From: a virus
Lineage: Duplodnaviria; Heunggongvirae; Uroviricota; Caudoviricetes
IMG/VR virus record: IMGVR_UViG_2563366799_000009
DNA: 46,457 nucleotides
Direction: 5' to 3' (one strand)
Shown here: positions 18,949-19,538 of the stretch, piece by piece
Layout: each line of letters begins with the position of its first letter
Numbering within the stretch: the first letter of the stretch is position 1
The notes under the pieces: generated by a model
What the model saw: only the letters and a program-made list of their open reading frames with translations
Told to the model about the DNA's origin: nothing
The model's database searches: none
Position numbers and translations under genes: made by a program

Positions 18949-19538
18949 TATTTCTCTCCTCTTGTGGAGTTGTAGAGGCCGGTCATTTTACTTACCAGCG
19001 CAGACTTTCCGGTCTCTTTCTGTCCGCTATCCGGATTAAGCCGGACCTGGTGGCTTTCCTGCATACGCTGATCGAGAGAGCGTTTACGGGATGGCTGAGA
19101 TGCGGCTGCGGCCGGAGCCGAAGAGGCTAGGACATTAATTGCTGCCGCAGAACTCATCCCGGTATTGAAAGCCAGTGACGCGGCCAGTGAAGGATTCGCA
19201 GCTGCATGCTTACTGCCGAAAATACGGGCGCAGCGTTTACGCTCAGCAGCGCGTGCATTTTTTACCGCCTTACTCTCTTTGCGATCGTCGTCGCCGTCGT
19301 CTTCAGAATCATCATCTTCTGACGCATCCGGATCATCGCAGTCATCTTCAGCATCATCGTCGCGTTCGTCTTCTTCCGCGTCGTCGTCGCGCTCATCATC
19401 ATCGGCATCATCTTCGCGCTCATCCTCTTCCGCGCGACGGGCTTTCGCTTTTTTGGCTTTTTTATCCTCTTCTTCCTCAGAAGCGGAAGGGCCAAGACCA
19501 ATGAGGTGAGCAAAACTAAACGTCTTTTTCTTTGCCAT
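18948..19538 (-). CDS. Scaffold-like protein with highly acidic tandem repeat
   Basis: 196 aa from MAKKKTF; EDDADDDERDDDAEEDERDDDAEDD tract; directly after the prohead protease, as Nu3 follows C in lambda. Confidence 0.55.
   Translation of the reverse strand: MAKKKTFSFAHLIGLGPSASEEEEDKKAKKAKARRAEEDEREDDADDDERDDDAEEDERDDDAEDDCDDPDASEDDDSEDDGDDDRKESKAVKNARAAERKRCARIFGSKHAAANPSLAASLAFNTGMSSAAAINVLASSAPAAAASQPSRKRSLDQRMQESHQVRLNPDSGQKETGKSALVSKMTGLYNSTRGEK

Follow-up and report, generated by a model that had tools for sequence, protein, structure and literature searches.

A tandem-repeated acidic tract in a probable stand-alone Nu3-type head scaffold of an Enterobacterales prophage

The head scaffold of phage lambda, Nu3, begins at an internal in-frame start in gene C and shares its C terminus with the protease encoded there. 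Nu3 reportedly interacts with the portal protein B, the protease C, and the capsid protein E (PMC3224144). In the scaffold of phage P22, the acidic N-terminal 40 residues are disordered or mobile in procapsids and are reportedly needed for scaffold exit, and the basic C-terminal domain binds the coat protein (bioRxiv 10.1101/539965). These systems were compared with a minus-strand gene located in a 46,457-nucleotide stretch of viral DNA (Caudoviricetes, IMG/VR record IMGVR_UViG_2563366799_000009), the whole of which is referred to below as the window. The gene encodes a protein of 196 amino acids (aa) with a central tract rich in Asp and Glu, part of which is encoded by tandem DNA repeats. Judged from sequence comparison, the gene is most likely a stand-alone Nu3-type scaffold gene, the nested C/Nu3 pair of lambda being split here into two coupled genes. 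The tract is probably a disordered acidic linker of this internal scaffold, in a temperate Enterobacterales myovirus prophage with a lambda-like head module.

The gene runs from an ATG at 19538-19536 to a stop codon at 18950-18948, and its translation starts with MAKKKTFSFAHLIGLG and ends with STRGEK. A longer frame of 224 aa is given in the list of open reading frames (ORFs). The ATG at 19538 was taken as the true start because an AGGAG sequence (19549-19545) lies upstream, RefSeq uses the same start, and the starts of homologues agree. The product is deposited as WP_001085197 with the label "hypothetical protein" and matches phrog_6382 ("unknown function") over its full length with an E value of 5.7e-78. 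On the minus strand, the genes follow the order portal (PF05136), S49 protease (PF01343), scaffold, HDPD decoration protein (PF02924), and Phage_cap_E (PF03864), with gpW and the large terminase upstream of the portal gene and sheathed-tail genes downstream of the capsid gene. The order agrees with the RefSeq annotation and with the isolated phages Citrobacter phiNP and Serratia vB_SspM_BZS1 (BZS1). The gene occupies the same place in the head operon as Nu3 does in lambda, between the S49 protease that follows the portal and the D-type and E-type proteins.

Besides this position, profile homology of the C-terminal domain to Nu3 bore out the description of the gene as scaffold-like in the initial annotation. 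Scanning 1.84 billion representatives with the C-terminal domain in phmmer yielded 322 clusters, from which 100 diverse members were aligned (alignment A3). In hhalign, this alignment matched lambda Nu3 with a probability of 85.8% and an E value of 5.3e-6 over 73 columns, pairing family positions 90-163 with Nu3 positions 110-182. Lambda Nu3 also matches phrog_6382 at an E value of 3.8e-4, and positions 7-100 of phrog_17040 are matched by the window protein and Nu3 alike (E values of 6.8e-10 and 1.6e-11). In phrog_53, labelled "head maturation protease", lambda gpC covers positions 1-442 and the window protein matches positions 298-463, and the C-terminal part of this family is matched by both the window protein and Nu3. 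Among the 100 aligned members, matches were obtained to phrog_17040 for 96, to phrog_53 for 40, to phrog_8399 ("head scaffolding protein") for 3, and to phrog_8940 (Nu3) for 1. The proposed homology to Nu3 rests on these profile methods.

The S49 protease encoded immediately upstream shares 36% identity with residues 1-283 of lambda gpC (BLASTP E value of 2e-60). It ends where the protease domain of gpC ends, without the Nu3-like C-terminal extension present in gpC. The scaffold has its own gene, read in the +1 frame with respect to the protease gene, and is not nested in it as Nu3 is in gene C. The Shine-Dalgarno sequence AGGAG of the scaffold gene lies inside the 3' end of the protease gene, whose TGA stop codon is at 19542-19540. 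Relatives from E. coli and Kluyvera, as well as Citrobacter phiNP and Serratia BZS1, share this arrangement of Shine-Dalgarno sequence and adjacent stop, although the sequence around it differs. A stop/start layout of this kind is typical of translational coupling and suggests that coupling would set the protease:scaffold ratio. A programmed frameshift giving a protease-scaffold fusion was also considered, prompted by a scaffold frame open for 39 codons before the ATG and an A6 run before the protease stop. It was ruled out, since the upstream open frame is only 9, 4, and 1 codons long in a further relative (L007), phiNP, and BZS1, respectively, and the A-run is missing in phiNP and BZS1. A 306-aa "fusion" protein (P0002) was dismissed as the result of an upstream frameshift on a 1.1-kb contig.

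The charge along the 196-aa protein changes from an isoelectric point (pI) of 10 in the N-terminal segment, through 37 Asp or Glu in 49 residues of the tract, to a pI of 11 in the C-terminal domain (Table 1). The AlphaFold2 (AF2) model predicts residues 1-89 to be disordered, with a predicted local distance difference test (pLDDT) score below 50 over most of the acidic tract. Five helices (90-108, 116-126, 130-139, 155-167, and 178-192) are predicted for residues 90-192, with pLDDT up to 90. In predicted structure and charge, the protein therefore has the combination found in P22 gp8-like scaffolds, a charged, disordered segment and a basic helical end. The charge polarity and the split into disordered and helical parts are the same as in P22 gp8, as a functional analogy only, since no sequence or fold relation to gp8 was detected by PDB profile search or Foldseek. 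Lambda Nu3 is homologous by profiles in its C-terminal helical domain and lacks the Asp/Glu tract, the Lys-rich block, and the FAHLxG motif, all three of which are present in the window protein.

Within the N-terminal segment, the conserved motif FSFAHLIGLG is followed by SASEEEED and then by the Lys-rich KKAKKAKARRA. Residues F9, H11, and L12 are conserved in at least 90% of the 100 diverse family members, which share 30-60% identity. The pattern F-x-F-A-H-L-x-G, encoded at 19509-19529 of the window (residues 4-10, KKTFSFA) and in the codons that follow, is the best-conserved part of the protein outside the C-terminal domain. It may act as a site of docking or cleavage, with the protease or the portal as partner, because the protease here is devoid of the Nu3-like domain of gpC.

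The acidic tract, within which the translation reads ...EEDEREDDADDDERDDDAEEDERDDDAEDDCDDPDASEDDDSEDDGDDD..., contains 37 Asp or Glu and only 3 Lys or Arg among its 49 residues. An acidic repeat had been placed at 19260-19440 in the initial annotation, and the tract at 19284-19430 falls inside these bounds; the peptide quoted there, EDDADDDERDDDAEEDERDDDAEDD, corresponds to residues 42-66. Tandem Repeats Finder (TRF) reported an array at 19342-19430 with a period of 27, 3.3 copies, 77% matches, no indels, and a score of 108, one of two arrays found in the window. After the three degenerate 9-aa units, the coding register continues with EDDCDDPDA and then SEDDDSEDD. The first of these begins with a 21-nucleotide (nt) unit encoding EDDCDDP, which can also be written GAAGATGACTGCGATGATCC(T/G).

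The 15-mer motif GTCGTCGCGYTCRTC, which had been singled out from the sequence, was found once exactly (19383-19397), once with one mismatch (19356), and twice with two mismatches (19287 and 19410). These four matches compare with 0.27 expected, and four or more were reached in 0 of 100 shuffles. Shuffling of the whole window is a lenient null for low-complexity DNA, and codon shuffles inside the tract were hence also run. For residues 37-66, a range picked after inspection, nucleotide identity at a lag of 27 was 0.78 versus 0.57 ± 0.05, a value equalled in 0 of 5000 codon shuffles. Over the whole tract, it was 0.625 versus 0.536, with 51 of 5000 shuffles as high, and when the lag was left free, the whole-tract repeat signal was not significant (781 of 5000 shuffles did as well). 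The longest exact direct repeat in the window allele is 11 nt. The repeat in the window is genuine, old, and degenerate, and the best evidence that its units are real is comparative, in that relatives differ by entire units.

In-frame alleles of 537, 546, 558, 567, 579, and 600 bp, compared with 591 bp in the window, were found in prophages that match the window at 99.5-100% identity in their protease and decoration genes. A further allele of 582 bp (L018), with a 45-nt duplication, is present in the complete genome CP060737.1 next to a protease gene that is 90.8% identical. The length differences between all these alleles and the window are confined to the acidic tract. Near-identical prophages carry one, two, or three copies of the 9-aa unit; one of them (L015, from ERR3330398) has an exact 54-nt deletion (2 × 27) that fused unit 1 to unit 3, and two copies are present in proteins P0124 and P0134. 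The 7-aa (21-nt) unit occurs once in the window, twice in L023, three times in L016 and L017, and four times in L026 and L027 (the latter from GCA_050198055.1). In L016, TRF gave a period of 21, 3.4 copies, and 98% matches. The allele with four copies (199 aa) was recovered from 14 contigs, which include several from metagenomes and two of chromosome scale, larger than 1 Mb, one of them a 4.74-Mb contig of Enterobacter asburiae. The widest range of copy number, from two to four, was seen in alleles with near-perfect units (98% matches). Tandem DNA repeats and a copy number that varies beside identical flanks are thus both present, as in an in-frame variable number tandem repeat (VNTR). In having whole-unit allele differences in otherwise identical sequence, the locus is like in-frame VNTRs that arise by slipped-strand mispairing.

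The scaffold gene was detected in 58 of 5426 complete E. coli genomes. All 31 copies near-identical to the window allele are 591 bp long, and among the 27 copies at about 82% identity, 24 have 591 bp and 3 have 570 bp. The suggestion that the region may vary in length between strains is supported with this qualification, that the window's own allele is stable, and the copy number compared across related prophages proved not to be invariant. The locus is not hypervariable. The observed length changes of -54, -45, -33, -24, -12, -9, +9, and -108 nt are all multiples of three and leave the downstream domain in frame. Since the units are 27 and 21 nt long and every change keeps the reading frame, the locus is not an on/off phase-variation switch. 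The degenerate window allele, stable in 31 genomes, is a further difference from the coding VNTRs of bacteria and phages that arise by slipped-strand mispairing.

The uniform 591 bp of the 31 near-identical copies would also be expected if the length variants were assembler collapses or expansions of a truly invariant locus. Several database entries are partial, with contigs stopping in the gene, the largest deletion (L021, -108 bp) sits on a contig of 0.52x coverage, and the fusion protein P0002 clearly stems from the upstream frameshift on its short contig. Against an assembly artefact stand the four-copy allele with its 14 contigs, two of them above 1 Mb, the 582-bp allele in a complete genome, and a 178-aa allele found in five clusters that differ by point substitutions and come from NCBI, ENA, and Logan. 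Collapse is unlikely because the tract, at about 150 nt, has roughly the length of a single Illumina read and because the window units are only 77% alike. The copy series from one to four and from one to three are regular, with clean unit boundaries. An artefactual origin of the variants is accordingly quite improbable.

Many entries of one cluster (P0004) are marked "partial" and come from contigs that end within the acidic tract. One E. coli assembly contains two partial copies (P0129 and P0130) whose tract sequences differ. Two related prophages are present in some genomes, and the repeat is a break point for short-read assemblers.

A large protein collection contained 737 homologues of the 196-aa protein. 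Among the best 120 of them, length varies in the tract alone, from 16 to 55 aa (mode near 50-53), between an N-terminal part of 35-36 aa and a C-terminal part of 106-108 aa that stay constant. The inter-anchor length was 59-63 aa for 83 of 117 clusters, and shorter alleles formed a tail. Between the N-terminal FAHLxG motif and the C-terminal ER.RCAAIF domain, an acidic tract, defined as a 30-aa window with at least 50% Asp or Glu, was kept in 126 of 136 full-length representatives, and the acidic composition persists even where the C-terminal domains are only about 36% identical. Distant homologues have the same architecture with a tract built of unrelated units, such as DEDPKPDAE and DDVDDVK. 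In Hafnia paralvei (L011, 2363-2469), a near-perfect 27-nt repeat encodes 3.5 copies of DDPDADDDS with 97% matches in TRF. The homologues of Serratia BZS1 (L025, 3210-3809) and Photorhabdus (L012 and L013) have the whole Lys-rich and acidic module duplicated, KEKGKKAKSRRAEE... being present twice, whereas the window repeats a 9-aa unit. Composition and position are conserved and sequence is not, which points to selection on the charge and disorder of the tract rather than on its sequence, together with recurrent independent repeat expansion.

Comparison with relatives at about 82% identity, on a protein-guided alignment in the minus-strand frame, gave 2/0/19 differences at the first, second, and third codon positions within the tract, compared with about 12/8/60 for the flanks. 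The third-position bias in the tract argues for purifying selection. A neutral low-complexity spacer, whose acidity and length variation are by-products of slippage, would agree with a tract of 16-55 residues in otherwise near-identical proteins, with a sequence and repeat unit that vary by lineage, and with the lack of the tract in lambda Nu3. Neutral slippage would not, however, keep regenerating Asp and Glu from unrelated units, as seen in the 126 of 136 representatives, and the purifying selection within the tract and the tight spacing of its anchors in most clusters also speak against it. A neutral spacer is for these reasons considered unlikely.

The same codon-position counts bear on two ORFs of the plus strand, at 19165..19509 (114 aa, Ser-rich) and 19175..19504 (109 aa, Arg/His-rich), which span the tract and stay open in relatives, as a real or overlapping second gene might. 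The openness of this strand follows from composition, because runs of GAN codons have the complement NTC, in which TAA, TAG, and TGA are impossible in any frame. Substitutions gather at third codon positions when read in the minus-strand frame, the protein encoded on that strand has conserved flanking domains and 737 homologues, and RefSeq annotates the minus-strand gene only. A plus-strand gene thus deserves next to no credence, and the assessment of these ORFs as artefacts in the initial annotation was upheld.

For the probable acidic linker of the Nu3-type scaffold, the following course of events is proposed. The C-terminal domain would bind the inner procapsid shell, the portal, or both, as Nu3 does. 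The acidic tract would act through charge and flexibility, as a flexible polyanion that maintains the solubility of the basic domain and keeps nucleic acid off it. It may also fill the procapsid interior and aid the exit of the scaffold, or of its protease-cut fragments, when DNA enters. We infer, by analogy with P22, that an electrostatic spacer and exit aid is the likeliest role of the tract. Units would be gained and lost by slipped-strand mispairing or by unequal recombination between direct repeats. Slippage would be rare in the degenerate window allele, with its 11-nt exact repeat, and easier in near-perfect 21-nt arrays. Unit-sized indels would be tolerated because the function of the tract would depend on bulk charge, with a length of about 50 residues nevertheless being preferred. 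The P22 scaffold is recycled intact in a phage that has no prohead protease, whereas here an S49 protease is encoded immediately upstream, and degradation of the scaffold is therefore expected, as for Nu3. The acidic segment of P22 also differs from the window tract in not being tandem-repeated.

There is a slim chance that the tract serves as a tunable module and that its polymorphism is adaptive. Changes in unit number could then adjust the charge or volume within the procapsid, with effects on how faithfully heads assemble, how large they are, or when the scaffold leaves, or could diversify a protein sensed by host defence.

Proteolysis of the core in T4 proheads gives rise to acidic internal peptides, and DNA mimics, Ocr among them, have a highly acidic character. 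With 37 Asp or Glu in 49 residues, the charge density of the tract is extreme, as it would be in a DNA-mimic peptide with an anti-restriction or anti-defence function or in a charge-balancing internal head peptide retained after proteolysis. Mimics of the Ocr or ArdA type present a folded, fixed array of carboxylates, whereas the tract is predicted to be disordered (pLDDT below 50), and Foldseek with the predicted model gave no structural match. The tract belongs to a late head-morphogenesis gene coupled to a prohead protease, is attached to a domain homologous to Nu3, and varies in sequence, spacing, and length across the family. No defence-related evidence turned up, although no search aimed at such evidence, for example with PADLOC, was made. 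A role as DNA mimic or retained internal peptide is very improbable.

Several observations weigh against the tract being a linker of a Nu3-type scaffold with the role outlined above. Pairwise similarity to Nu3 is weak (BLASTP E value of 0.065, about 30% identity over 69 residues), and hhalign against Nu3 with a shallow alignment gave a probability of 5.7%. Foldseek with the predicted model against BFVD and PDB returned nothing at E < 1, and a sequence-profile search of PDB gave compositional matches only (prunin and Toc34), so that no solved structure fits. The homologues in the isolated phages phiNP and BZS1 are labelled "hypothetical" and are undiscussed. Most of the length variants come from short-read or metagenome assemblies, which often break inside the scaffold gene, and alleles with a tract of only 16-34 residues exist, so that much of the tract is perhaps dispensable. 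The proposed spacer and exit role is an analogy with the unrelated P22 protein, and since lambda Nu3 has no acidic tract at the equivalent position, a role for it is not transferable from lambda.

The coordinates of the scaffold gene, its parts, and the neighbouring head genes are given in Table 1.

Table 1. Features of the scaffold gene region in the window
Feature	Position	Strand	Basis
Probable stand-alone Nu3-type head scaffolding gene, 196 aa	18948..19538	-	ORF translation; RefSeq coordinates identical
N-terminal segment, residues 1-36, pI 10	19431..19538	-	Charge count; conservation; AF2 predicted disorder
Acidic low-complexity tract, residues 37-85	19284..19430	-	Composition; AF2 pLDDT <50; family length variation
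Three degenerate 27-nt (9-aa) tandem units	19350..19430	-	TRF; relatives with 1 or 2 units
9-aa unit 1, EEDEREDDA	19404-19430	-	
9-aa unit 2, DDDERDDDA	19377-19403	-	
9-aa unit 3, EEDERDDDA	19350-19376	-	
21-nt unit GAAGATGACTGCGATGATCCG (EDDCDDP), one copy in the window	19329..19349	-	2, 3, or 4 near-perfect copies in near-identical prophages
C-terminal basic domain, predicted helical, residues 86-196, pI 11	18951..19283	-	AF2; hhalign against Nu3; PHROG cross-matches
Protease/scaffold junction: AGGAG, 2 nt, TGA, 1 nt, ATG	19536..19551	-	Sequence; conserved in relatives
Antisense stop-free stretch with both plus-strand ORFs	19165..19509	+	GAN-codon composition; not a gene
Lambda-family portal	20403-22040	-	
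S49-family prohead protease, 288 aa	19540..20406	-	PF01343 E 1.6e-27; phrog_53 positions 6-290 of 583
Lambda-D-type decoration protein	18544-18948	-	
Lambda-E-type major capsid protein	17397-18482	-	

Stand-alone Nu3-like proteins appear to form a large uncurated family of at least 322 clusters at 50% identity, without a Pfam or NCBIfam model. Pfam gave only sub-threshold matches of the window protein to Nop14 and CDC45, due to its acidic composition, and no NCBIfam model matched it. Through this family, a "hypothetical" protein of hundreds of Enterobacterales prophages and of two isolated phages can probably now be assigned as a Nu3-type head scaffold, and the nested C/Nu3 arrangement of lambda would have a split-gene counterpart. 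The tract would illustrate selection on composition, in which lineages rebuild the same acidic linker from unrelated units. In practical terms, the repeat is a site where short-read assemblies break or may mis-size the gene, and it could be of minor use for typing prophages of this group. In-frame repeat variation is ordinary for such a scaffold protein and involves no new mechanism.

A megablast search of the region against a phage collection gave no match, and tblastn alone recovered phiNP and BZS1. The homologues in phiNP (WOZ57184.1) and vB_SspM_BZS1 (phiBZS1_p06) have the same gene position and the same three-part architecture; phiNP forms plaques on E. coli K-12. These two entries, like phrog_6382, bear no functional annotation, and the papers describing phiNP and BZS1 contain nothing on the scaffold homologue.

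E. coli strains (e.g., MLI104K1) and Kluyvera georgiana ATCC 51603 carry the scaffold gene at 100% identity, and Kluyvera sichuanensis carries it at 99%. The near-identical gene shared by E. coli and Kluyvera indicates that the prophage moves between genera of Enterobacterales. In E. coli HS (L003, NC_009800.1, 2073097-2076687), a small hypothetical gene comes directly after the decoration gene, a baseplate assembly gene comes next, and the 591-bp scaffold gene is intact. Because the major capsid, head-tail, and sheath genes are missing, the E. coli HS prophage is regarded as deleted and defective.

The second tandem array of the window is located at 36900-37010, with a period of 22/44; its units, such as GGTTCCGCGAyTTCGCGGAAT, are imperfect palindromes. 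A minus-strand ORF at 36451..37383 (310 aa, Pfam Phg_2220_C), beside a gene for a Dam-type methyltransferase at 35120..36454, contains the array. This array looks like an iteron or operator array within a replication-type gene, comparable to the lambda origin in gene O.

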